The notes under the pieces are model-generated. The model saw only the letters and a list, made by a program, of their open reading frames with translations. It did no database searches and was not told the DNA's origin. A stretch of 64,000 bases of DNA from an uncultured delta proteobacterium (GTDB lineage Bacteria > Myxococcota_A > Polyangia > Palsa-1104). The position numbers and the translations under genes are program-made. Of the stretch, positions 21,046-34,448 are shown in pieces. Location of the stretch: NCBI GenBank assembly GCA_963785725.1, contig CAWAWS010000016.1, forward strand, positions 192,001 through 256,000, read 5' to 3'. The stretch's first letter is position 1, and each line of letters starts with the position of its first letter.

Positions 21046-22836
21046 ATGCAAATTCGCGATCGACCCAAGGCCGGAGCGTGGTTGGGCTTCGCCTTGAGTG
21101 TCCTGTTCGCGTCGGTGCTGGTCCCGCTGACCACGTTCGAGCTGTGGCAGGACCGCGCCGTCGACGCCGCCGGCCGCGCCGTCTTCACGGTGCGCTTGCC
21201 GGAGATGGGCGTCTGGCGCGACACGCTCGTCGGCAGCCGCTTCGAGCATCGGCGCGTGCTCGTGCCGCGCGGCGAATTGGTGGACGCGGCCGAGCGGCGG
21301 CTCATCAACGCCTACGAAATCGGGCGCCGGCCGCCGTCGCTGGGCCTGCTGCTCGGTCTGGCGATCGCCTACTTCATGCTGGGCATGCTGCTCACGTCGT
21401 ATCTGCGCAACTTCGGTTATCGCGGACGACGATTACGCACGCAGATCGTCATGCTCGCCTGTCTCGTCGCCGCGGCGGCGATCTACAAGGCGTACCTGCT
21501 GCTGACGCCCTACCCCGCCTATTGGCTGCCGATTGGCGCGTTCTCGATCGCGGTCGCCGTTCATCATGACCGGCAGGTCGCCTTCGCGGGCACCGTGGCT
21601 TTGTCGTTCCTGGTCGGCTCGCTCATCCCGTTCGATCTCGGTCTGGCGCTGGTGCTACTGCTGCAAGGCTTTGGCGCCATCATGTTCTTGAGCCACCCGC
21701 GGCGTTGGTGGGGCTTGGTGACGGCCGGGCTCGGCGGCGGCATGCTGGCTGCGCTCGGCTACCTCGCGCTCTACTGCCTCGTGCGCGGCCGCCTGCCTGA
21801 CGAGGACACGGCGTCGCTGATGACGTCGGGCTTGGCCGGCGCGTTCGGCGGCGGCGTCGCGGCGGGCCTGCTCGCCATCGTCGTCGCGCCGCTGCTCGAG
21901 CGCGCGCTCGGCGAGGTCTCGCGCACGACGCTGCTCGAGCTGACCGATCTGAATCACCCGCTGCTCAAGCGCATCGCCACGGCCTCGCCGGGAACGTGGG
22001 CGCACTCGCTGGCGATGGCGAACATGGCCGAGCTCGCCGCCACGGCGATCGGCGCCAATGCGCTGCTGACCCGCGTCGGCGCCTACTTTCACGATCTCGG
22101 CAAGTCGTCGGCGCCGCAGTATTACATCGAGAACTTGCACGCCGGCGAGCCCTCGCCGCACGACGCGCTCGATCCCGACGTCTCGGCCGACGCCATCTTC
22201 GCCCACTGTACCGAGGGTGTGCGGCTCGGACGCGGCGCGGGAATTCCCGAGCCGGTGCTCGACTTCATGCACATGCATCACGGCAACGGGCTGCTCGAGT
22301 ACTTCTGGCACAAGAATCAGGAGCTGGGGAACCCGAAGCGCCTGTCGGAGAAGGCGTTCCGCTATCCGGGCCTGCCGCCGCAGACGAAAGAGACGGCGAT
22401 TTTGGCGATCTGCGACGCGGTCGAAGCGGCCTCGCGCACGCTCAAGCAGCCGGCGGAGCGCGATCTGACGAACCTCGTGCAGCGCATCGTGTTCGGAAAG
22501 CTGCGCTTGGGTCAGCTCGATCAGTCGGGGCTGACGTCGGCCGACCTGAAGGCGCTGTGCAACTCGCTCGTCGACACGCTGAAGAACTCGTTCCACGTGC
22601 GCATCGAGTATCCGTGGCAGAAGGAAGAGCGCGCGGCGCAGGCCGCCGAAGCGGCCGCGCAAGCCGCCGCCGCGCCTGCCGAGGCCGGCGGACAAGCGGA
22701 TGCGACGGCGCACCCGAGCGTCGAAGCGCCCGGGCCGACCATCACGCAGCGGCTGTTCGTCGAAGAGCGGCTGGACTCGGCCGATTCACCGCGGCCGAAT
22801 CCCGAAGCCAAAGCTGCGAAGACTAAAGTTTCGTAA
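21046..22836 (+). CDS. 7TM-HD (HDIG) membrane phosphohydrolase, PgpH-like
   Basis: About 7-8 hydrophobic segments, then LLELTDLNHPLL, PGTWAHS, FHDLGK, H, HHG, FRYPG, ICDAVEAASR. Confidence 0.88.
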   Translation: MQIRDRPKAGAWLGFALSVLFASVLVPLTTFELWQDRAVDAAGRAVFTVRLPEMGVWRDTLVGSRFEHRRVLVPRGELVDAAERRLINAYEIGRRPPSLGLLLGLAIAYFMLGMLLTSYLRNFGYRGRRLRTQIVMLACLVAAAAIYKAYLLLTPYPAYWLPIGAFSIAVAVHHDRQVAFAGTVALSFLVGSLIPFDLGLALVLLLQGFGAIMFLSHPRRWWGLVTAGLGGGMLAALGYLALYCLVRGRLPDEDTASLMTSGLAGAFGGGVAAGLLAIVVAPLLERALGEVSRTTLLELTDLNHPLLKRIATASPGTWAHSLAMANMAELAATAIGANALLTRVGAYFHDLGKSSAPQYYIENLHAGEPSPHDALDPDVSADAIFAHCTEGVRLGRGAGIPEPVLDFMHMHHGNGLLEYFWHKNQELGNPKRLSEKAFRYPGLPPQTKETAILAICDAVEAASRTLKQPAERDLTNLVQRIVFGKLRLGQLDQSGLTSADLKALCNSLVDTLKNSFHVRIEYPWQKEERAAQAAEAAAQAAAAPAEAGGQADATAHPSVEAPGPTITQRLFVEERLDSADSPRPNPEAKAAKTKVS

Positions 22837-23107
22837 AGCCGGCGCCGCCGAGCTTGTGGCGCGACTCGGCGCCGCCGAACTTGAAGCCGACGACCTGATC
22901 GGCGCTGAAGTAATAGCGCTCGCCCTTGTGGGTCAAGAACACGACTTCGCTGCCGATCTCGATGCGCGAGATGCGCGCGATCTGCAGCGTCTCTTGGCCG
23001 AGCGAGATGTAGGCGTTGGCCTCGACCTCCTCGGGAAACACGTAGCCGTTGCCGTCCTTCTTCACCATCGGGGCGGTCGTCAGGACTTTTTCGATCGATA
23101 GCGCCAT
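22823..23107 (-). CDS. Small hypothetical protein (94 aa)
   Basis: Good codon bias, protein-like composition; TATTGT lies 6 nt upstream of the ATG. Confidence 0.75.
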   Translation of the reverse strand: MALSIEKVLTTAPMVKKDGNGYVFPEEVEANAYISLGQETLQIARISRIEIGSEVVFLTHKGERYYFSADQVVGFKFGGAESRHKLGGAGFTKL

Positions 23108-23465
23108 GGGGCGACAATAAGGCGGAACCCAGCGCGCGTCCAGCAGCCGCGCACGCCCGCGATTGGCGCGTATTTACGGATACGAATCGCGCCAACCGAC
23201 GTCCGGCGCTACTTTGCATGTGTCGTTCGCAGAAGTTCGCTCGACACGCGAGCTAGCCGAGCTGAATCGCGCTCAGCCGCATGGGACGGCAACTTGCGCG
23301 ATCGGGGCCGATCGAGCGCGTGGCCCAGCGCGTTGCAACGGACGGATATCCCCAGGGTGTGAATTCCCGTGGGAAACTTTTTCATCATCGCAGTGACCCG
23401 ATCGAGGCGCGCGAAATCGTTGGCGACGGCGGTCAGTTCACAGTTGTGGACAGCCTGTGCGGCGC

Positions 23466-23494
23466 TTGCGTCGGCGGAGGCGCGGTCCTACTCT
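23466..23494 (+). promoter_or_regulatory. Sigma70-like promoter for the putative large ncRNA
   Basis: TTGCGT (23466-71) - 17 nt - TACTCT (23489-94). Predicted +1 near 23501 coincides with the first base of the closing helix. Confidence 0.65.
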
Positions 23495-23500
23495 CATCGA

Positions 23501-24113
23501 GTCGGGCGGTACGACGACGAGCCAAGAACCTCGCAGGGGGATCTCGACCTCGGAAGAGGACGAGACTGTCGGCGGCGAAGCAGACTCTGGAGCGCAGGAC
23601 GCGGGCGACTTTGGCCGCCGGCCTCGAAAGCGCACGAGAGGTGACGCCCAAAAGCGTCCATCGCCACCGGTCGGCAATCCCTCAGGGAGGACACGGCGAC
23701 GGCAGCGGGCCGGCAATCTAAACCGTCGCAGGCAGCGCAGCGTTGACGCAACATCCCACGCACCACGCTGAAAATGCGTGGGGGCGCGGTGGTGGGAAAC
23801 CTCAGGAGAGGCGCCCGTGGAGGCGGGCAAGGCGGCTCGGCAAGGACCCTGAAGGAGGCTGCAACCGCAAGAGAGGATCGCCGACTGGTCAAACGGTCGG
23901 ACGAGGGACGACGAGGGAACACCGCGAAGCGTGGGACGATGTCCGAGCGCATGGCGGGAGCGGCGAAAACCTGAGCCGCTACTTCACGTCCCGATAAGAC
24001 TCTGCAGCGGGCGGTAACTTCACGAGGGGCGCGGCGGCTCACGAGCGATCGGGAGCGCCGGCCGAGTACGCTGAAGTCTCTGGAGAGGCGGCTCGTCGTC
24101 GTGGCGCGCCGGC
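23501..24113 (+). ncRNA. Putative large (~610 nt) structured non-coding RNA, class unassigned
   Basis: Perfect 13-bp pairing ACGACGACGAGCC (23511-23523) / GGCTCGTCGTCGT (24090-24102), extendable to 23501/24113. At least 7 internal helices, repeated motifs, own promoter, no credible ORF. Confidence 0.75.
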
Positions 24114-24136
24114 GTATGCCGGCGTAGACTGCGGGC

Positions 24137-26548
24137 GTGAAGCGCTTGGGCCTCGTCGCTGCGCTGTCGCTGTCCGCACTCTTGTCGCGACGCGCGTCGA
24201 CGGCCGAGCTCTTCTCGAGCCTGGACGCGCTGGCCGGGCAGCTCAAGAACGGCGACTCGGTGCAGCGGCGCGAAGCGGTCGACAAGCTCGACGCCTATGG
24301 TGCCGACGATGCGCGACCGCTCCTCTTGCGCGCGCTCGGCGACAGCGACACCGACGTGCGGGTGCACGCGGCCACGGCCATTGGGCGGCACCATGTCGCC
24401 GAGGCCACGGCCGGGTTGACGGCGGCGCTGGGCGACTCCGATTCGCGCTTGCGGACGAGCGCGGCGGAGGCGCTGGGCCTCGTGCTCGAAGGGCCGGCCG
24501 CGGGCGATCCGCCGGCGACGACCTTGCGCGCGGTCGATGCGCTCGAGCGCGCGCTCGGCGACGGTGAGCACGAGGTGCGCGAGGCCGCGGTGGGCGCGCT
24601 CGGGCGCTTGCCGGCGACGATGGGACGCCGCGCCGCGGTGGCGTTGACCGGTCGGCTCGACGACGAAGCCGCCGGCGTGCGCCAGCGCGCGGCCGAAGTC
24701 TTGGGCCGCATGGGCGAGACGCGCGCGACGGTGCCGCTGTTGGCGCGGCTCGGCGATCCGACGCGTGAGGTGCGCGCGGCGGCGCTCGAGGCGCTGGCGC
24801 TGCTCGGCGATCCGCACGCGGTGCCGGCGATGGTGCGCATGCTGCGCGATCCGGCCGACGACGTGCGCGCGACGGCGGTGACGGCGCTCGGTCGGCTGCG
24901 CGCAGCGACGGCGATTGGGCCGCTCGACGAGACGATGCTGCACGGCCAGCCCGACGCCCTGCGCGTGCGTGCGGCCTATGCGCTCGGTCAAATCGCCAGC
25001 GCTGGCGCCCGCAGCGACAACGCCAGCGCCAACGGTGTCACGGCGGTCGACGCGCTCTTGAGCGCGCTCGGACGCGATGAGCTGAGCGCGGCGGCGAGCG
25101 AAGCCTTGGTGCGCGCCGGCGGCGCGGCGGTTCCGGCGCTGCTGGCGCGGCTGCCCGAGGCGTCGAACGAGCGCGCGACACTGTATCTCGACCTGCTGCG
25201 CCAAATCGGCGACACGCGCGCGACGCCGGCCCTGCTCGACGAATTGGGCCGTGGCCGCATCGGCGAGGAGCCGATCGTCGACGCCTTGGGCGCCATGTTG
25301 CACGCCGGTGACAAGCGGCCGCTCGTCGAGCTGGTGGCGCGGCTGGGTTCGTCGTCACCGTCGCTCAGGCGGCATGCGGCGCTGGCGTTGCAAGGTGTCG
25401 TCGACACGCGGGCGACGGCGGCGTTGACGGCGGCGGCCAGCGACACGGAAGCGCCGGTGCGCCTCATGGCCATCGGCGAGCTCGGTCGGCTCGGCGCGCG
25501 CGACGCCTTGGCGACGCTGGCGCGCGTGCTCGCCAGCGGCGACGACGAGACCGCCGCGGCCGCCGCGCACGCGCTCGGCCAGCTCGACGATCGGCGCGCG
25601 ACCGCCCCGCTCGTCGCCGCGCTCGGCCGACCGGAGCGACGGGTGCGGCGAGAGGCGGCCGACGCGCTGGCGCACCTCGGTGACGCGTCGGTCGCGCCCG
25701 CGATCATGCGCGCCGTGCGCTCGAGCGCGCCCGATTGTCGCGCCGGCGCCATCGTCGCGCTCGGCGGCGTGCTGCGCCATCACAGCGACAGCTCGGCGCG
25801 CGAGCTGCTGCTCGGTTACGCCGAGGGCAGCGACGCCGCGGCGGCGTTGGCCGCCATCGACGCGCTCGGCGCGATGGGCGACGCGACCGCCGCGCCGCGC
25901 CTCGTGCACCTCGTCGACGGTCGCGCCGACACGGGCTTGCGGCAGCGCGCGCTGGCGGCCCTCGGCAACCTCGACAGCGACGACGCCACGCGCACGCTCG
26001 CCGCGATCCTTGCCGCCGACGTCGATCCCCGCCTGCGCGCCGAGGCCGCTTGGGCGCTCGGCAAACGCGCGCGCGCCGCCGCGACGACAACGCCGCTCTT
26101 GACCGCGGCGCTGCAGTCGCCGACGCCGGCCGTGCGCGCGAACGCGGCCGCCGCGCTCTATCGGCTGCAGCGCGCGCCCGGCCTGCTTACGCGCCTCATC
26201 GACGATCGGGATCCGGCCGTGCGTGGCAACGCGGCGCTGGCGCTCGCGCACACGCCGGCTGCGCATGCCGCGCTGGCGCGTCTGGCCGCTGAGGACGACG
26301 ATCGACTGACCCGCGCGGCCGCCAAATCGGCCCTGCAAGCGCATTCACCGGTGACAGGTAACGACTGGATCGCGCTCGATGTCGTCGACTTCGACGGCTC
26401 GCCCTTGAGCGACGCGCGTTACCGCTTGGCGCTGCCCGATGGTCTCGTCAAAGTGGGCGTGACCGATGAACGCGGCGTCGTGACCGAGGAAGCGCTGCCG
26501 ACCGGCGGCTGCGCGCTCGTGCTCGACGAAGCCGCGGCCGCGCGCTAG
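24137..26548 (+). CDS. Exported HEAT/PBS-lyase repeat protein (803 aa)
   Basis: Signal peptide; about 20 repeats of L-x-D-x-D-xx-VR-xx-AA-x-ALG. Confidence 0.9.
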   Translation: MKRLGLVAALSLSALLSRRASTAELFSSLDALAGQLKNGDSVQRREAVDKLDAYGADDARPLLLRALGDSDTDVRVHAATAIGRHHVAEATAGLTAALGDSDSRLRTSAAEALGLVLEGPAAGDPPATTLRAVDALERALGDGEHEVREAAVGALGRLPATMGRRAAVALTGRLDDEAAGVRQRAAEVLGRMGETRATVPLLARLGDPTREVRAAALEALALLGDPHAVPAMVRMLRDPADDVRATAVTALGRLRAATAIGPLDETMLHGQPDALRVRAAYALGQIASAGARSDNASANGVTAVDALLSALGRDELSAAASEALVRAGGAAVPALLARLPEASNERATLYLDLLRQIGDTRATPALLDELGRGRIGEEPIVDALGAMLHAGDKRPLVELVARLGSSSPSLRRHAALALQGVVDTRATAALTAAASDTEAPVRLMAIGELGRLGARDALATLARVLASGDDETAAAAAHALGQLDDRRATAPLVAALGRPERRVRREAADALAHLGDASVAPAIMRAVRSSAPDCRAGAIVALGGVLRHHSDSSARELLLGYAEGSDAAAALAAIDALGAMGDATAAPRLVHLVDGRADTGLRQRALAALGNLDSDDATRTLAAILAADVDPRLRAEAAWALGKRARAAATTTPLLTAALQSPTPAVRANAAAALYRLQRAPGLLTRLIDDRDPAVRGNAALALAHTPAAHAALARLAAEDDDRLTRAAAKSALQAHSPVTGNDWIALDVVDFDGSPLSDARYRLALPDGLVKVGVTDERGVVTEEALPTGGCALVLDEAAAAR

Positions 26549-27778: not shown

Positions 27779-27820
27779 CGTGTCATTTCAGCGAGTTAAC
27801 CAGCGGTCGCTGCCAATCTG

Positions 27821-29332
27821 TCAGTGGCTGCCGAGCAGATGTGGCAATGCGTCGACGAGGTCGCCGGCCATGAGGCCGGTCTGGCTGCGCGCGGCGGCGG
27901 CGAAGTCGCCGGCCGCGCCGTGCAAGTAGACGGCGGCGCAGGTGGCGGCGAAGGCGTCGGTGCGCGTCTCCGCGCCTTTGCCGCTCGTGCGCGCCAAGGC
28001 GGCGGCGACGACGCCGGTCAAGACGTCGCCGGTGCCGCCCGTTCCGATGCCCGGATTGCCGGTCGGGTTGATGGCGAGGCGGCCGTCGGGCGACGCGATG
28101 ACGGTGCGCTCGCCCTTCAAGACGCAGATGGCGCCGTAGTGCTCGGCGATGGCGCGCGCCGAGCCGATGCGATCGGCCTGCACGGCTTCGGTGTCGCGTC
28201 CGAGGAGCCGCGAGGCTTCGCCGGGATGCGGCGTCAGCACCGTCGGCGCCGCGCGCTTCGGCAAGAGCGACGGCTGCGCGGCCAAGAGCGTCAGCGCGTC
28301 GGCGTCGACGACGAGCTGCAGCTCCGACGCGCCCAGCTCACGCAAGCGCGCCTTGGCGAGGTCGTCGCGACCGATGCCGGGGCCGATGGCGAGCGCGCGT
28401 TTGCCCTCGATCAGCGCCGCGAGCTCGCCCTTGTCTGCCGCTCAAGCGCTCGATCATGAGCTCGGGAATGCGGCCCTCGACGATGTCGGCGGCGTCGCTC
28501 GACATGGCGACGGTGCACAGGCCGGCGCCGCTGCGTAAGACGGCGCTGCCGCACAGGAGCGCCGCGCCCGTCTTGCCGCGTGAGCCGGCGACGACGAGGA
28601 CGTGGCCGTGCGTGCCTTTGTGGCCGCCGGCTTCGCGGACGCGCAGCGGATCGAAGATGCGCGGCGTCGAGCAGCTCGGCTTTGACGCCGCGGGCGCGCG
28701 CCAGCCGCTCGGGAATGCCGATGTCGTGCACGTGCAGCTTGCCGACGAGCGGCAGCGCGCCGGCGCCGACGAGGCCGAGCTTGGCGAACGCGAACGTGAT
28801 CGTGTGATCGGCGCGCACCGACGGGCCGATGATGCCGCGATCGGCGTCGACGCCCGACGGCACGTCGACGGCGAACACCGGGCCGCGATGGGCGCGCATG
28901 CGGGCGATGGCGTCGCGCGCGCCGCCGGCCTCGACCGGTCGCGACAGGCCGGTGCCGAAGAGCGCGTCGACGACGATGTCGTTGCGATGGAGCAGCGCGG
29001 CCGGCGCGTCGGCGATCTTCACGCCCGAGCGCTCGGCGGCGTCGAAGCAGGTGCGCGCATCGCCCGCGATCTTGCCGCGCTCACCGACGAGCGCGATGGT
29101 CACTTCGGCGCCGCGCGCGTGCAGATGGCGAGCGACGACGAAGCCATCGCCGCCGTTGTTGCCGGTGCCGCAGAAGGCGACGACGCGCGCCTTGGCTAAT
29201 GTCGCTGTGCGCGCAGATGACGTCGACGACGCCGCGGCCGGCCGATTCCATCAAGACCACGCCGGGAACGCCTAGAACGTCGATGGTTTCGCGATCGAGC
29301 GCGCGCATTTCGGCAGCGGTGACGAGCAACAT
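27821..29332 (-). CDS. nnr: Bifunctional NAD(P)H-hydrate epimerase/dehydratase (YjeF); several indels
   Basis: [61 protein letters not shown] spread over several frames. Confidence 0.88.
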
Positions 29333-29336
29333 GCGG

Positions 29337-29708
29337 TCAGCTTTCCGCGACGACGAAGGCCATGGCCGAGTCGTCCGCGTGGGTGATCGACAGGTGCAGC
29401 TTACGAATTCCCGCGCGCGTCGCCGCCGCCGCGGCGTTGCCGCTCAGGCGAAACGACGGCGCCCCACCCGCTTCGTTGACGACCTCGAGCTCGTGCCAGC
29501 GCAAGCCTTCGGGCACGCCCAGCGCCTTCAAGAGCGCCTCTTTGGCGGCGAAACGGGCGGCGAAGTGCTGCCCCGAGTTGGCGCGCGCGCGGCAATAGGC
29601 CCGCTCGGCGTCGGTAAACAGCCGCGCCTCCAGCCGCTCGGGATGCGCGTCGAACGCCCGCTGCATGCGACTGATGGGCGTCAGATCGACTCCCACGCCG
29701 ACGATCAC
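29337..29708 (-). CDS. acpS: Holo-[acyl-carrier-protein] synthase
   Basis: [29 protein letters not shown]. Confidence 0.95.
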
Positions 29709-30461
29709 GCGCGCACGGCTCCGCGGCCGCGATCGATGGCGGCGCGCATTTCGCGGACGGCGCGCTCCATGCCGACGAGCACGGCGCGCGCGACGATGGC
29801 GTGACCGATGTTGAGCTCCTCGATCTCGGCGATGGCCGCGACGGCGCCGACGTTCAGATAATCGAGCCCATGGCCGGCGGCGACGTGCAGGCCGAGCTCG
29901 GCGCCGCGCGTGGCCGCGCGATGAATGCGCGCCAGCTCGGCGTCGCCGGGCGCGTGGTCGATCGGACGCACGCGCTCGCAGTAATCACCGGTGTGCAGCT
30001 CGACGCGCGGCGCCCCGAGCTGCTTCGACGCCTGCACCGCCTCCTCCGACGGATCGATGAAGAGGCTGACTTGGATGCCGTCCGCCATGAGCCGCTCGAT
30101 GGCGCGGCCGACGGCGCTGTCGCCTTGGCCGCGGGCGCCGAGGACATCGAGCCCGCCTTCGGTCGTCCGCTCTTGGCGCTTTTCGGGCACCAGCGACACG
30201 ATGTCGGGCTTCACCTCGCGGGCGATCGCCACCATCTCGTCGGTCGCCGCCATCTCCAGGTTCAATGCGCCGCGCACCGTCTGCCGCAAGAGCCGGACGT
30301 CGCGATCTTGAATATGGCGACGATCTTCGCGCAGATGCACGGTGATGCCGTCGGCGCCGGCGAGCTCGACGAGCGGCGCGGCCCACAGCGGATCGGGATA
30401 GCGTCGTGCCGCGCGCCTGCCTGAGCGTCGCCACGTGGTCGATGTTGACGTGCAGCTTCAT
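29705..30461 (-). CDS. pdxJ: Pyridoxine 5'-phosphate synthase; indel near 30380-30400
   Basis: [57 protein letters not shown]. Confidence 0.93.
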
Positions 30462-31012
30462 CAGTAGGTCCATACTCCGCAAGTGGTCGCCGGCGCGCAC
30501 TGACCGGCGACGAAGCCGTCGTAGCAGCAGTCGGTGGCGACGCATTCGTGGTTCGTGCCGCTGGCGCAGCTGTCGCTGCAGGTGCAGAAGCCGGGCGGCG
30601 GCGGCGTGGGCGCGGTCGAGCCGGCGCAGCTGCCGTTGACACAGCTGACGCCGTCGGGACAGGTGACGCCGCAGCCGCCGCAGTTGCGAATGTCGCTGCC
30701 GAGGCTGATGCAGCCGTTGCTGCCGCAGCAGGTCTGGCCGGTGCCGCAGATGTCGCCGAAGGGCGGGCAGCCGCACTTGCCGCCGATGCAGATGTCCCCG
30801 TCGGGACAGACGGTGCCGCAGGCGCCGCAATTGCGCGGGTCGCGGCCGATGTCGATGCAGGCCGTGCCGCAGCACGTAAGGCCACAGGCTTGGCCGTTGA
30901 GCATGCAGGTGCCGCCGTCGCCGGAGGATTTGTCGCCGCTGCGGCTGCTGAGACCGCAGCCGGCGACCGTTAGCGACAGGAGAACGCCGAGAACGACAGA
31001 GATGCGCGCCAC
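30461..31012 (-). CDS. Cys-rich lipoprotein with Stig1/myxobacterial Cys-repeat units
   Basis: Lipobox VAGC; two C-x-D/S-x3-D-x-RNCGxCGxxC units; more than 25 Cys in ~183 aa. Confidence 0.8.
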
Positions 31013-31043
31013 GCGGCGACGGTAACGCCACGCGCGGCTGGGA

Positions 31044-32444
31044 TCAAGCCGCGCCGCAGGCCTGCTCGAGCGCGTGCGCGATCTCGTCGGCGTAGCCGCG
31101 AATGACGCACCTCGTCCGGCCCTTCGACCATGACGCGCGCCTTGTGCTCGGTGCCCGAGTAGCGCACGAGCACGCGCCCATCGGTGCCGAGCGTCTGCTC
31201 GACGCGGGCGATGAGCGCGTTGACCGTCGCCAATTCGCCGAGCGGCCGCTTCTCCTTGACCTTGAAGTTCACCAGCACCTGCGGATAGCGCGTCATCACG
31301 CGGCGCAGCTCCGACAGCGGCTTGCCGCTCTCCAACATCACCGCCAGCACCTGCAGCGCGCCGAGGACGCCGTCGCCCGTCGTCATGTGATCGAGGAAGA
31401 CCAAGTGGCCCGACTGCTCGCCGCCGAAGTTGTAGCCGTTGGCGCGCATCTCCTCGACGACGTAGCGATCGCCGACCTGCACGCGCGCCAGTTTGCCGCC
31501 CATCTTCGTCGATCGAGCGCTCGAGACCGAGGTTCGACATCACCGTCGCCACCAGCGTCTTGTGCTTGAGCTCGTCGCGCTCGATCATGCGGCGCGCGCA
31601 CATGGCCATGATGGTGTCGCCGTCGACCTCGTCGCCGTGCTCGTCGCAGATGATGACGCGGTCGGCGTCACCGTCGAGGGCGATGCCGAGCTGCGCGCCG
31701 CGACTTGACGACCGCTTGCTGCAGCTTCTGCGGATGGAGCGCGCCGCAGTCGTCGTTGATGTTGGTGCCGTCGGGGCGAATGCCGAGCGCGATGACGTCG
31801 GCGCCGAGCTCGCTGAAGACGGCGGGCGCGACTTTGTAGGCGGCGCCGTTGGCGCAATCGACGACGATGCTTCAGGCCCTCGAGCGTCAAATGGCGCGGA
31901 AACACGCTCTTCAAGAACACGACGTAGCGGCCGCGCGAGTCTTCGATCTTCGTCGCCTTGCCGATGTCGGCGCCGTGCGGGCGGTTGCGATCGAGCTCGT
32001 CCGGAGGCCATCAAGTCCTCGAGGTGCGCCTCGAGCTCGTCGGGCAGTTTGAACCCGTCGGCGGCGAAGATCTTGATGCCGTTGTCCTCGATACGGGTTG
32101 TGTGAGGCCGAGATGACGACGCCGGCGTCGGCGCGCATCGACGACGTGATGAAGGCGATGCCGGGCGTCGGCAAGCGGGCCGCAGAGCATGACGTCGGCG
32201 CCCATCGAGCAGATGCCGGAGGCCAAGCGCGGTCTCGAACAGATAGCCCGATAGGCGCGTGTCCTTGCCGATGACGATGCGACCGCGACCGCTCTTGTGC
32301 TTCGAGCGAAAGTGGTAGGCGACGGCGCGTCCGAGCCGCAGCGCCATCTCGGGCGTCATCGGATCGTACGTTGGCGACGCCACGAACGCCGTCGGTGCCG
32401 AAGAGTTGGCGTTTGGCGGGCGGGGCTTTATCGGCAGCGGACAT
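31044..32444 (-). CDS. glmM: Phosphoglucosamine mutase; multiple indels
   Basis: [62 protein letters not shown] across frames. Confidence 0.93.
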
Positions 32445-32461
32445 GGGCTCCTCGGGCGTGG

Positions 32462-33392
32462 TCAGTCGTGCTTGCGACGGGTTATAAGCATGGTCGTGTC
32501 CGGCTGCACCTCGGCCGCGACGCCCGCCGGCAATCCGGTGACGGTGATATTGCGAACGTAGCGCGCCGGCGGCCGCGTATCGACGAGCGCCGCGTCGACC
32601 TGCAGCCCCGGCTCGCCCAAGCCCTTGAGCAGCACCGACGGACCGCGCAGGATGAGCCGGCCGGCCGCCGGATCGACGGTCCCCTCCAGCCGCGTCAGGC
32701 CGGTCACCGTGATCGGCACGGCGTCGAAGCTGCGCTCGACCATCGCCGGCATGATCTCGGCCGTCACGGTCACCGCCGTCGCGTCGACGAAGCGCGTATG
32801 CAAGGGCGGCGGCTCGAGCGCGGCGCTGCCTTCGACCGGCCCGTGCGCATCGGCCACGCGCAAGGGCCGCGTGGGCGCGCGCAGCATGGCGTCGACCGCG
32901 CTCTTGGCGCCGTCGATGCGCACGTGCGCCGGCGCGGCCGTCACTTTGGCGACGCGATAGCCCTCGCCCGGCTCGCCTTCGAGGATCGGCTGCACCGGGA
33001 TCTCGCGCGTCGCCCGCGGCTCGGTCGCGACATGCACCTCCGACGGCACGATCGACGCCACGCGCACGCCCGCCGGCACTTTGATCATGTCCTCGTCGAG
33101 GCGCACGTCGGGCGTCTGTACGCGGGTCAGGTCGATATGGATCGGCTCGAGCGCGCGATCGAGCCGCTGCAGCTTGCTCCACGGCCCGCGCACGCCCACT
33201 TTGACCTCGAGCGGCGGATCGGACACGAGCACGCGATCTTCGGGCAGCGTGTACACGACCTTGACGTAGGCGCCCGACGACGGCGTCCTTGTCGTTGCGC
33301 ACGAGCATGAACAGCGTCAACGCCAGCACCATCGACAGCACCTTGATCGGCAGCTCGTCGACGAATACGCGAACGAAAAAGGGGCGCGCCAT
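32462..33392 (-). CDS. cdaR: CdaR/YbbR-like regulator; indel near 33275
   Basis: N-terminal [17 protein letters not shown]; YbbR-like V-x-V-x-G-P repeats and G-x-P-x-EGY; lies between cdaA and glmM. Confidence 0.8.
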
Positions 33393-33395
33393 CGG

Positions 33396-34448
33396 CTAGG
33401 ACTCGGCCGTCTTGGCCGCCTCGCGCGCGGCGGCGCGACCCTCGTCGCGATTCTCGTCGTGGGCGCCGGCGCCGGCGTCACGCGCGTCGGCGGCGTCGGC
33501 GGCGCCGCTGGCTCGCTCGCGCGTCGGCGCGGCGGCGTCGGCATCGGCTTCGACGCGCGCGGTGGCGAGCGGATCGGCCTCTTCCGGCGGCTGCGGACGC
33601 TCGAACGGCAGCGCCTCGAGCGCCGTCGGCACTTCGCGCTCCTTCGGCTTCGGCGTCGCTTTGCGCTTCTGCTTCTGGAAGAGGCCGAGCAGCGCCTTAC
33701 GCAGCGTCGGCGAGTCGAGATCGCGGGCGATGTTGCCGCCGAAGCACAGCGAAATCGAGCCGCGCTCCTCGGACACCACGACGACCACCGCGTCCGTCTC
33801 CTCGGTCACGCCGATGGCCGCGCGATGACGCGTGCCGAGCGCCTTGTCGAGCCGCGCGTTGGCCGACAGCGGCAACACCGCGCCCGCCTGCGCGATGCGC
33901 AGGTTCTTGATGATGACCGCGCCGTCGTGCAGCTTGTTCTCGGAGTCGGGCAGGAACAGCGAAACCAGCAGCTCCTCGGACACCTTGGCGTCCATCTCGA
34001 CGCCCGACTCGTTCAGGTAGTCGACCAGATCGGCGTCGCGCTCGAGCACGATGAGCGCGCCGACGCGCGAGGTCGCCAGCCGCTCCGTCGCCTTGATGAC
34101 CTCTTCGAACACCGAGGTCTGCTCGTACGGTCGCGCATAGATGAACAGGTTCTGGCCGACGCGCATGAGCCCGCGGCGAATGTCATGCTGGAAGATGACG
34201 ATGAAGAAGATGATCGAATAATTGATCAGGTTATCGAGCAGCCAAGACAGCGTCGTCAGCTCGAGCAGCTTGGCCGCGAAGAAGCCGGCACCGACGAGCA
34301 CGATGCCGATCAGCATCTGCGCCGCGCGCGTGCCTTTGATGAGCAAGAGCGTGCGATAGATGACGTAGTAGACGATGAGGATGTCGAAGGCTGCCGTCAG
34401 CCACTCGCGCACCGTCAGGCTATGCAAGAGCGACTTCAGCGCGTGCAC
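33396..34448 (-). CDS. cdaA: Diadenylate cyclase CdaA
   Basis: Three N-terminal TMs, IFQHDIRRGL, GALIVLER, LHDGAVII, LGTRHRAAIG, VVSEERG. Confidence 0.95.
   Translation of the reverse strand: MHALKSLLHSLTVREWLTAAFDILIVYYVIYRTLLLIKGTRAAQMLIGIVLVGAGFFAAKLLELTTLSWLLDNLINYSIIFFIVIFQHDIRRGLMRVGQNLFIYARPYEQTSVFEEVIKATERLATSRVGALIVLERDADLVDYLNESGVEMDAKVSEELLVSLFLPDSENKLHDGAVIIKNLRIAQAGAVLPLSANARLDKALGTRHRAAIGVTEETDAVVVVVSEERGSISLCFGGNIARDLDSPTLRKALLGLFQKQKRKATPKPKEREVPTALEALPFERPQPPEEADPLATARVEADADAAAPTRERASGAADAADARDAGAGAHDENRDEGRAAAREAAKTAES

Follow-up and report, generated by a model that had tools for sequence, protein, structure and literature searches.

The question raised by this locus is what kind of gene, if any, fills the gap between two divergent protein-coding genes in the window (that is, the whole stretch of 64,000 nucleotides analysed here, which belongs to genome G000). 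A preliminary description of this DNA had placed there an independently transcribed large non-coding RNA (ncRNA) of a class that it could not name, and this claim is now borne out by: (i) the lack of an Rfam match; (ii) covariation among homologs; (iii) the lack of a conserved reading frame; (iv) RNA-library contigs confined to the element; and (v) changing neighbours. It is practically certain that 23501-24114 (plus strand) constitutes a stand-alone structured ncRNA gene, present in one copy in G000, whose strand and exact ends we infer from the sequence. The features of the locus are the following:

22823..23107, minus strand: divergent gene for a 94-aa hypothetical protein (a neighbour, not a partner; no Pfam match)
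23445..23453, minus strand: DnaA-box-like site, 56 nt upstream of +1, with one mismatch here
23466..23494, plus strand: sigma-70-like promoter (-35 at 23466-71, -10 at 23489-94; positions kept in 10/10 close homologs; under the scanner threshold)
23501..24114, plus strand: large structured ncRNA gene, ~614 nt (conservation boundaries, covariation, RNA-library contig)
23501..23523, plus strand: closing helix, 5' strand (helices 1-2 of the alignment, 93-99.5% of cells paired)
24090..24113, plus strand: closing helix, 3' strand (fold and covariation alignment)
24098..24119, plus strand: RNA 3' end, integration site in relatives (att-like duplication; 18-22 nt duplicated in G001 and L050)
24137..26548, plus strand: downstream HEAT-repeat protein gene (Pfam HEAT_2, E 1.8e-71), starting 23 nt downstream of the RNA

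The gap had been described as lacking a credible ORF and as purine-rich on its plus strand. Both statements hold: purines make up 60% of that strand, and a 263-codon minus-strand frame lacks a Pfam match and is absent as a conserved frame in the homologs. No protein-coding frame is kept among the homologs, in which codon-position periodicity was not detected either (0.106, 0.090, 0.131). Since only 3 of their 88 indels are multiples of three (85/88 being frame-breaking) and no common frame exists, the region is not a coding gene. Upstream, the proposed promoter TTGCGT-N17-TACTCT is indeed in the sequence, and TTGC..N17..TA...T and the +1 G occupy the same place in 10/10 close homologs; nevertheless, a consensus promoter scanner called no site here. 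Sequence conservation among homologs begins at 23501 and stops near 24114. These limits coincide with those of the end-to-end helix described earlier (23501-23 with 24090-113, including a perfect 13-bp core), which is present. No intrinsic terminator was found at the 3' end of the window RNA.

The fold of the 613-nt sequence has a z of -3.85 (20 shuffles), and the RNA reaches -310 kcal/mol versus a mean of -270 and a best value of -287 in 100 shuffles. In any case, folding energy carries little weight here, because random windows of this GC-rich genome fold equally low (100 windows: mean -292, down to -364 kcal/mol). Covariation is more informative of the pairing itself. The close-homolog alignment consists of 13 rows with a pairwise identity of 72-100% (L051 duplicates G004), and 95.5% of its cells pair. 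Changes on both sides, which had been named as a check of the RNA, affect 45/204 pairs versus 17.4 in shuffles (0/500 as high) and 9-17 with slid partners, these counts being inflated by kinship and the structures being derived from the same alignments. In eight Planctomycetota RNAs, both-sided changes were counted in 106/205 consensus pairs, the shuffle maximum being 56. The earlier observation that helices use G-U pairs on the plus strand also stands, with 180 G-U cells versus 29 A-C cells for a structure that was predicted on that same strand.

Regarding the internal helices proposed earlier, the homologs support 23542-65, 23643-58, the outer TCCCAC/GTGGGA, 23813-28, 23881-900 and AGCGGC/GCCGCT, but they do not support GCGACGG/CCGTCGC (23696-729) or the alternative CCCACGCA/TGCGTGGG. 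As for GGGACG/CGTCCC, the partner of CGTCCC is the GGGACG at ~23906 and not the copy at 23933. Altogether, two or three of those internal helices differ from the conserved ones. A complementarity scan of unpaired columns for kissing-loop or pseudoknot partners gave only one 4-bp candidate. Three hairpins deserve mention:

23763..23781, plus strand: hairpin with a near-invariant 7-nt YGAAAAU loop (12/12 rows)
23813..23828, plus strand: near-invariant hairpin with a GGAG loop (alignment)
23958..23979, plus strand: hairpin with a GAA-N4-URA loop, seen too in the distant members L152, L158 and L172

The close homologs belong to one narrow group. By BLAST, the element is present in 4/4 genus mates (75-77% identity) and in 0/10 other genomes of the family, and a metagenome pattern returned 13 loci, nine of them homologs and four unsupported. 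Their records belong to Polyangia, Myxococcales or delta proteobacterium, and the 12 close homologs form one genus-level clade, across which the RNA is single-copy and syntenic. Within the order, the RNA is present in 5/42 genomes; the 37 others gave no match, at limited sensitivity, and in 25 other genomes no RNA homolog lies upstream of the 94-aa gene. When L057 was used as BLAST query against 401 Myxococcota genomes (E 0.01), 104 genomes matched, and the 29 non-self loci fetched were unsupported by profile. Phage (50,697) and plasmid (72,556) records gave no match to the RNA, again at limited sensitivity, while five viral-contig patterns returned one chimeric record and three false matches. 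The collection of homologs from Myxococcota, suggested earlier as a check, thus yielded genus mates, metagenome loci and two more Myxococcota genomes.

Is this DNA transcribed? Between 21 and 34% of the sampled words occur in 20 RNA runs, each from a separate study of soil, root, rhizosphere or litter, and some of these runs comprise only 24-60 million letters. Contigs from four of the 22 listed runs, chosen because they hold the element, were compared with the window. In 4/4 of these soil or plant metatranscriptomes, the contigs, which come from close relatives and show neither strand nor level, cover 23512/13 to 24080-24111, one measuring 599 nt (23512-24111) and another 575 nt. The promoter and the 94-aa gene have no RNA contig cover in the four runs, and stray fragments with unrelated loose ends fall on the HEAT gene in one run only, the gene start being uncovered. 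For the discrete ~610-nt plus-strand transcript predicted from 23501, the contigs are thus confined to the element, and their 5' ends (23512-13 in 4/4 runs) lie 11-12 nt inside the predicted +1.

Some assembled records join the RNA to foreign sequence. Two metagenome contigs link it to eukaryotic large-subunit rRNA (L048:1-756) and to RNase P RNA (L054:699-1075), with junctions ~9-11 nt inside the predicted 5' end. Likewise, an IMG/VR record of 2237 nt (L135) contains an RNA-phage replicase fragment and a Planctomycetota-type copy, ends 4 nt past the closing helix, and is probably an assembly chimera. We interpret all three records as chimeric joins between abundant RNAs; in this guise, RNAs of the present kind go unnoticed in assemblies, one of them filed as a virus.

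Three traits were overlooked in the preliminary description: the module that is repeated six times, the DnaA-box-like site and the existence of relatives in another phylum. Concerning the first, the consensus contains six symmetric 3x3 internal loops that read GNA on one side and ANG opposite it; most copies of module 1 show NGG instead of ANG. Each loop is flanked by two helices, one of 4 bp and one of 3-4 bp, and the junction that adjoins it carries an A-rich linker and a hairpin. The modules and the internal duplicate are located as follows:

23533..23686, plus strand: module 1 (loop 23533-35 / 23684-86; 3' side varies, NGG in most homologs)
23589..23636, plus strand: module 2 (loop 23589-91 / 23634-36; on a 63-65 nt arm)
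23804..24084, plus strand: module 3, the terminal module (loop 23804-06 / 24082-84)
23851..24024, plus strand: module 4 (loop 23851-53 / 24022-24)
23869..24006, plus strand: module 5 (loop 23869-71 / 24004-06; missing with its subdomain in L057)
23926..23953, plus strand: module 6 (loop 23926-28 / 23951-53)
23859..24015, plus strand: internal duplicate of the 5' domain (23523-23695) (model R1: 26.8 bits, E 3.9e-5)

The minimum free energy fold contains five modules on the plus strand, none on the opposite strand and none in the RNase P of the genome; no shuffle and no random genome window (100 of each) contained more than one. In both phyla, the terminal GNA half starts 39-54 nt before the 3' end in 22/23 loci (the 3' ends of four distant loci were placed by eye), and module-2-type arms measure 62-68 nt in 27/29 extracted copies, a constancy of length that suggests a geometric constraint. 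At one aligned position, the loop is GNA/ANG in two and flipped to ANG/GNA in six of the eight Planctomycetota RNAs; such a turn by 180 degrees is what a self-contained 3D motif would be expected to allow. The idea that the loop is a k-turn was discarded, since the k-turn consensus misfits the register kept by covariation.

Model R1, built from the 5' domain of the RNA, matches a second copy in the 3' half, which indicates that the RNA grew by internal duplication. Among the 12 close homologs given, 11 have a match at the place of the duplicate; the exception is L057, a 511-nt homolog without the subdomain that bears modules 5 and 6. In G000, a half-motif count of at least 5 per 900 nt was reached only by the window RNA and one tandem repeat. 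The latter, a module-rich candidate for a second copy (C3, ~72300-72500), was rejected as a 17-nt tandem repeat: the locus (L183, G000:C3:72324-72490) contains ~10 head-to-tail copies of the 17-nt unit followed by inverted GC-rich repeats, flanked by tautomerase-like and efflux-like genes (by eye).

Relatives recognised by their modules, 0.5-1.4 kb long, occur in two further Myxococcota and ten Planctomycetota genomes, which brings the family to seven Myxococcota and ten Planctomycetota genomes and its length range to 511 to ~1370 nt. All these relatives have an end-to-end closing helix, and the terminal module is common to nearly all. They were collected by the following searches: (i) a GTDB module pattern, whose 45 loci comprised 4 genus mates, 2 Planctomycetota RNAs (R1: 41.6 and 43.9 bits) and 39 unsupported loci; (ii) BLAST from one Planctomycetota RNA, which matched 6/201 genomes of its class (two copies in one of them) and yielded RNAs that measure 860-964 nt, share 58-91% identity and have a closing helix of their own; (iii) the single-arm model R2, which added L162 (871 nt, profile E 1e-100), L158 from another Polyangia family (1138 nt, E 3e-18, its first 12 nt identical to those of the window RNA), and L152, L153 and L154 (~1370, 890 and 1040 nt); and (iv) a junction pattern, which added L172 from another Myxococcota class. 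L152, L153, L154 and L172 were assigned by module density, terminal module and closing helix, profile support being weak for L152 and L172. Genome G627 carries two diverged RNA copies (L139, L142) on different contigs. In an R1-fitted alignment of both phyla and both internal copies, both-sided changes occur in 41/49 pairs, an alignment that, being fitted, leans to the model.

Among the loci set aside, the R2 matches L163, L164 and L173 are coding DNA, and L174 and L175 have no module clusters. Per 900 nt, the 12 scored members contain 3-15 half-motifs, compared with 0-3 for 11 loci that were rejected. Wide searches relied on a 64-position, 8-pair model, with which true and false weak matches overlap at 30-34 bits. 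The junction pattern matched 0/261 Acidobacteriota and 0/5 single genomes of other phyla, blanks that weigh little because the pattern matches just 13/23 known loci. R2 gave one weak false match in 150 Verrucomicrobiota, and a short hairpin pattern gave 7 matches versus 8 for its reversed control.

As for the surroundings of the gene, a DnaA-box-like 9-mer lies at -57/-56 in 10/10 close homologs and is perfect in nine. Such a site occurs in 2.0% of 3000 random 300-nt windows, and the 8.9 Mb genome holds 11 perfect boxes, one of which precedes a gene with a DnaA-looking N-terminus (by eye). The ten homologs are not ten independent cases, because they form one genus-level clade, and in distant loci the site lies within 350 nt in only 6/13. 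Elsewhere in the genome (G000:C5:262434-262475), two perfect DnaA-box-like sites stand 33 nt apart before a lysyl-tRNA-synthetase-like gene (by eye). In 8/8 main Planctomycetota loci, a boxA-like sequence lies just before the closing helix, the pattern having been written from the same sequences.

The gene for the 94-aa protein, whose atlas neighbours are exclusively hypothetical, unnamed Myxococcota clusters, was dismissed as an obligatory partner, since it occurs far wider than the RNA (36/42 versus 5/42 genomes of the order). At the RNA 3' end, an integrase-bearing island is attached in G001 (L095:3050-4369, L008:1501-1522) and a 1.3-kb insert in L050 (L050:1157-2470); mobile DNA has thus integrated at this point twice. 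Further along the window (~27800-33400), several genes of housekeeping type (by eye a phosphoglucosamine mutase, pyridoxine synthase and carbohydrate kinase) look split over frames, suggesting indel errors in the assembly.

What, then, could such an RNA do? Its anatomy argues for a trans-acting structural RNA, and on balance we judge it probable that it works as an abundant multivalent RNA scaffold, similar to ROOL and GOLLD in working and a member of neither. The family would have arisen as a single tertiary module was duplicated again and again. In this module, which is located at a multi-way junction beside a hairpin, an A-rich linker leads into a 4-bp helix, and a 3x3 GNA/ANG purine loop separates the latter from a second helix. 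If each module is a rigid docking unit, the RNA would fold into a compact multivalent scaffold, which might pack on itself or on other copies to give a ROOL/GOLLD-like particle, or may offer repeated sites to one protein. In this genus, DnaA would set transcription of the RNA, and its level would thereby be tied to the replication state. The constant arm length, the invertible loop, the fixed terminal module and the variable module number best fit a multivalent scaffold. Against it stand the patchy distribution and the lack of a conserved kissing-loop set in our scan, unlike what the covered part of the literature describes for ROOL/GOLLD cages. A more ambitious version is put forward only tentatively and is rather doubtful: a superfamily of 0.5-1.4 kb RNAs that grow by the invertible GNA/ANG unit, form an RNA-only or RNA-protein particle, and have their level set by DnaA.

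The same modules could instead be the binding sites of one protein, the RNA being a sponge that titrates a regulator with CsrB-like logic and a different protein. Six near-identical sites, a copy number that varies by species, an apparent abundance and an own promoter are what such a sponge would display, and a peptide could find room in a groove widened by the purine-rich loop, where G lies opposite G and A opposite A. Nevertheless, CsrA was found in 0/5 carrier genomes searched (G000 88% and G003 99% complete), which discards it as an obligatory partner; no further GNA/ANG module that could mark an mRNA target was found in the rest of G000; and the sites form part of a rigid, branched frame and keep a conserved terminal position, more than a sponge would require. 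We regard this reading as unlikely.

Next to the Planctomycetota loci, NYN-domain genes recur (5/11: L138, L140, L141, L142 and L153), in two arrangements whose proteins are only 25-31% identical to each other, with a weak OST-HTH/LOTUS match in two cases. This neighbour raises the idea of a ribozyme or a processed precursor, in which the conserved terminal core is catalytic or is itself excised by a partner nuclease such as the NYN protein, an idea that the high conservation of the 3' core and the contig starts 11-12 nt inside +1 in 4/4 runs also favour. NYN was not found, however, in the Myxococcota carriers G000, G003, G004 and G790, and it was dropped as an obligatory partner; conservation is spread across the repeated modules and not over one unique core; and the libraries themselves may account for the 5' offset. 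Altogether, catalysis or excision seems distinctly improbable.

It is very unlikely that the locus is a selfish or mobile RNA element, or else a DNA-level element (a DnaA-titrating site) with an incidental transcript, even if its patchiness over two phyla, the two copies in G627 and the DnaA-like sites upstream point that way. Actually, the element is single-copy and syntenic across the genus, no transposase or reverse transcriptase was found among the examined neighbours, the phage and plasmid collections held no match, and both the G-U pairs and the flipped loop point to selection at the RNA level.

Could it belong, in very divergent form, to a class already described (OLE, ROOL, GOLLD or a motif published but missing from Rfam 15)? 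Size and ornate fold are similar, and the comparison covered the literature minus most subscription papers and supplements; we nonetheless consider this highly improbable. Rfam 15 gave no match in the window at the gathering threshold, OLE, ROOL and GOLLD included, and up to E 10 only a chance match of a miRNA model upstream (E 0.59); over the bodies of 19 related loci (E up to 0.5-1), nothing exceeded chance level. The earlier statement that RNase P, tmRNA and group I/II intron signatures are missing agrees with these results and with zero ARAGORN predictions. The housekeeping RNAs have other loci in the carriers: RNase P in 4/5 (in G000 at C7:409901-410273, 296 bits, RF00010), 6S RNA (RF00013) over cut-off in 4/5 and SRP RNA (RF00169) in 5/5, both elsewhere in G000, and canonical tmRNA in 3/5 (G002, G003 and G004), all with this RNA; tmRNA over the Rfam cut-off (RF00023) was not found in G000 (88% complete) or G001. 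The sequences define a new RNA family of myxobacteria and planctomycetes that matched no Rfam family or searched paper. No description of the family was found in the literature covered, although supplements, subscription papers or the motif papers of 2009 and 2017 could contain one. Term searches of the main texts of PMC11109978 and PMC8632094 gave no mention of Myxococcota or Planctomycetota.

Finally, a cis-acting leader or antiterminator for the downstream gene is hardly credible: while the window lacks an intrinsic terminator, the HEAT gene starts 23 nt downstream and the boxA-like sequence precedes the closing helix in 8/8 main Planctomycetota loci, a terminator-like hairpin and U-run follows the RNA in 6/13 distant loci, downstream neighbours vary (the next gene is convergent in L057, L139, L140, L142 and L158, and L057 has another gene in place of HEAT), inserted DNA parts the RNA from the HEAT gene in G001 and L050, and the start of the HEAT gene is without RNA cover.

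Bacteria have few classes of large structured RNA, and where a role is known (RNase P, tmRNA, introns), it is a central one. The present family spans two phyla and occurs in many soil and root metatranscriptomes. It offers direct handles for structural work, i.e., the 65-nt arm (NMR or crystallography), the 511-nt minimal form L057 and the 0.9-1.4 kb forms (cryo-EM), and a natural RNA frame built from repeats would matter for RNA structure prediction and design. Furthermore, the DnaA-linked promoter provides a testable tie between an abundant RNA and replication. The superfamily, if true, would be a natural RNA architecture made from a repeated brick and linked to replication control.

Compared with known systems, the RNA resembles RNase P, tmRNA, 6S and SRP RNA in its housekeeping-like layout, with a promoter of its own, an end-to-end helix and a 3' end at which DNA integrates, but those RNAs have other loci in the carrier genomes. 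Group I and group II introns were ruled out, there being no Rfam match and the flanks consisting of a promoter and a separate gene, which are variable. Retrons, DRT, OMEGA and bridge-type guide RNAs were likewise rejected, as no reverse transcriptase, nuclease or recombinase was found among the Pfam-scanned neighbours (1-2.5 kb flanks); the sole recombinase-type neighbour, an integrase, belongs to the G001 island. The sponge RNAs CsrB and RsmZ are stand-alone RNAs with a small motif repeated in GGA hairpin loops. The window RNA likewise stands alone and repeats one small motif, but its sites are internal loops in a branched frame, only 1/10 hairpin loops is GGAG, and CsrA is present in 0/5 carriers.

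OLE RNA, as described in part of the cited texts, is ~600 nt long, highly structured and conserved (PMC9723947, PMC12054373). The window RNA resembles it in these three respects; in contrast, OLE has a constant partner gene and a Gram-positive host, while here the hosts are Myxococcota and Planctomycetota and the neighbours vary. ROOL and GOLLD, according to the parts of the sources covered, are large (550-830 nt), ornate, orphan bacterial ncRNAs with multi-way junctions and a size-variable periphery (PMC12990946), form RNA-only multimers (PMC12990946; 10.1101/2024.12.08.627333), and build cages that depend on contacts of the kissing-loop or pseudoknot type (PMC12990946), their homo-oligomers being held together by kissing loops and by contacts in the minor groove. 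The window RNA differs from them in lacking an Rfam match, in its single repeated module, in its phyla and in the lack of conserved kissing loops in the scan, and also in its setting, which is not that of a tRNA array, prophage or megaplasmid (no tRNAs in the window, no phage or plasmid match). In any case, it is to ROOL and GOLLD that it is similar in size, ornate fold, multi-way junctions and variable domains.
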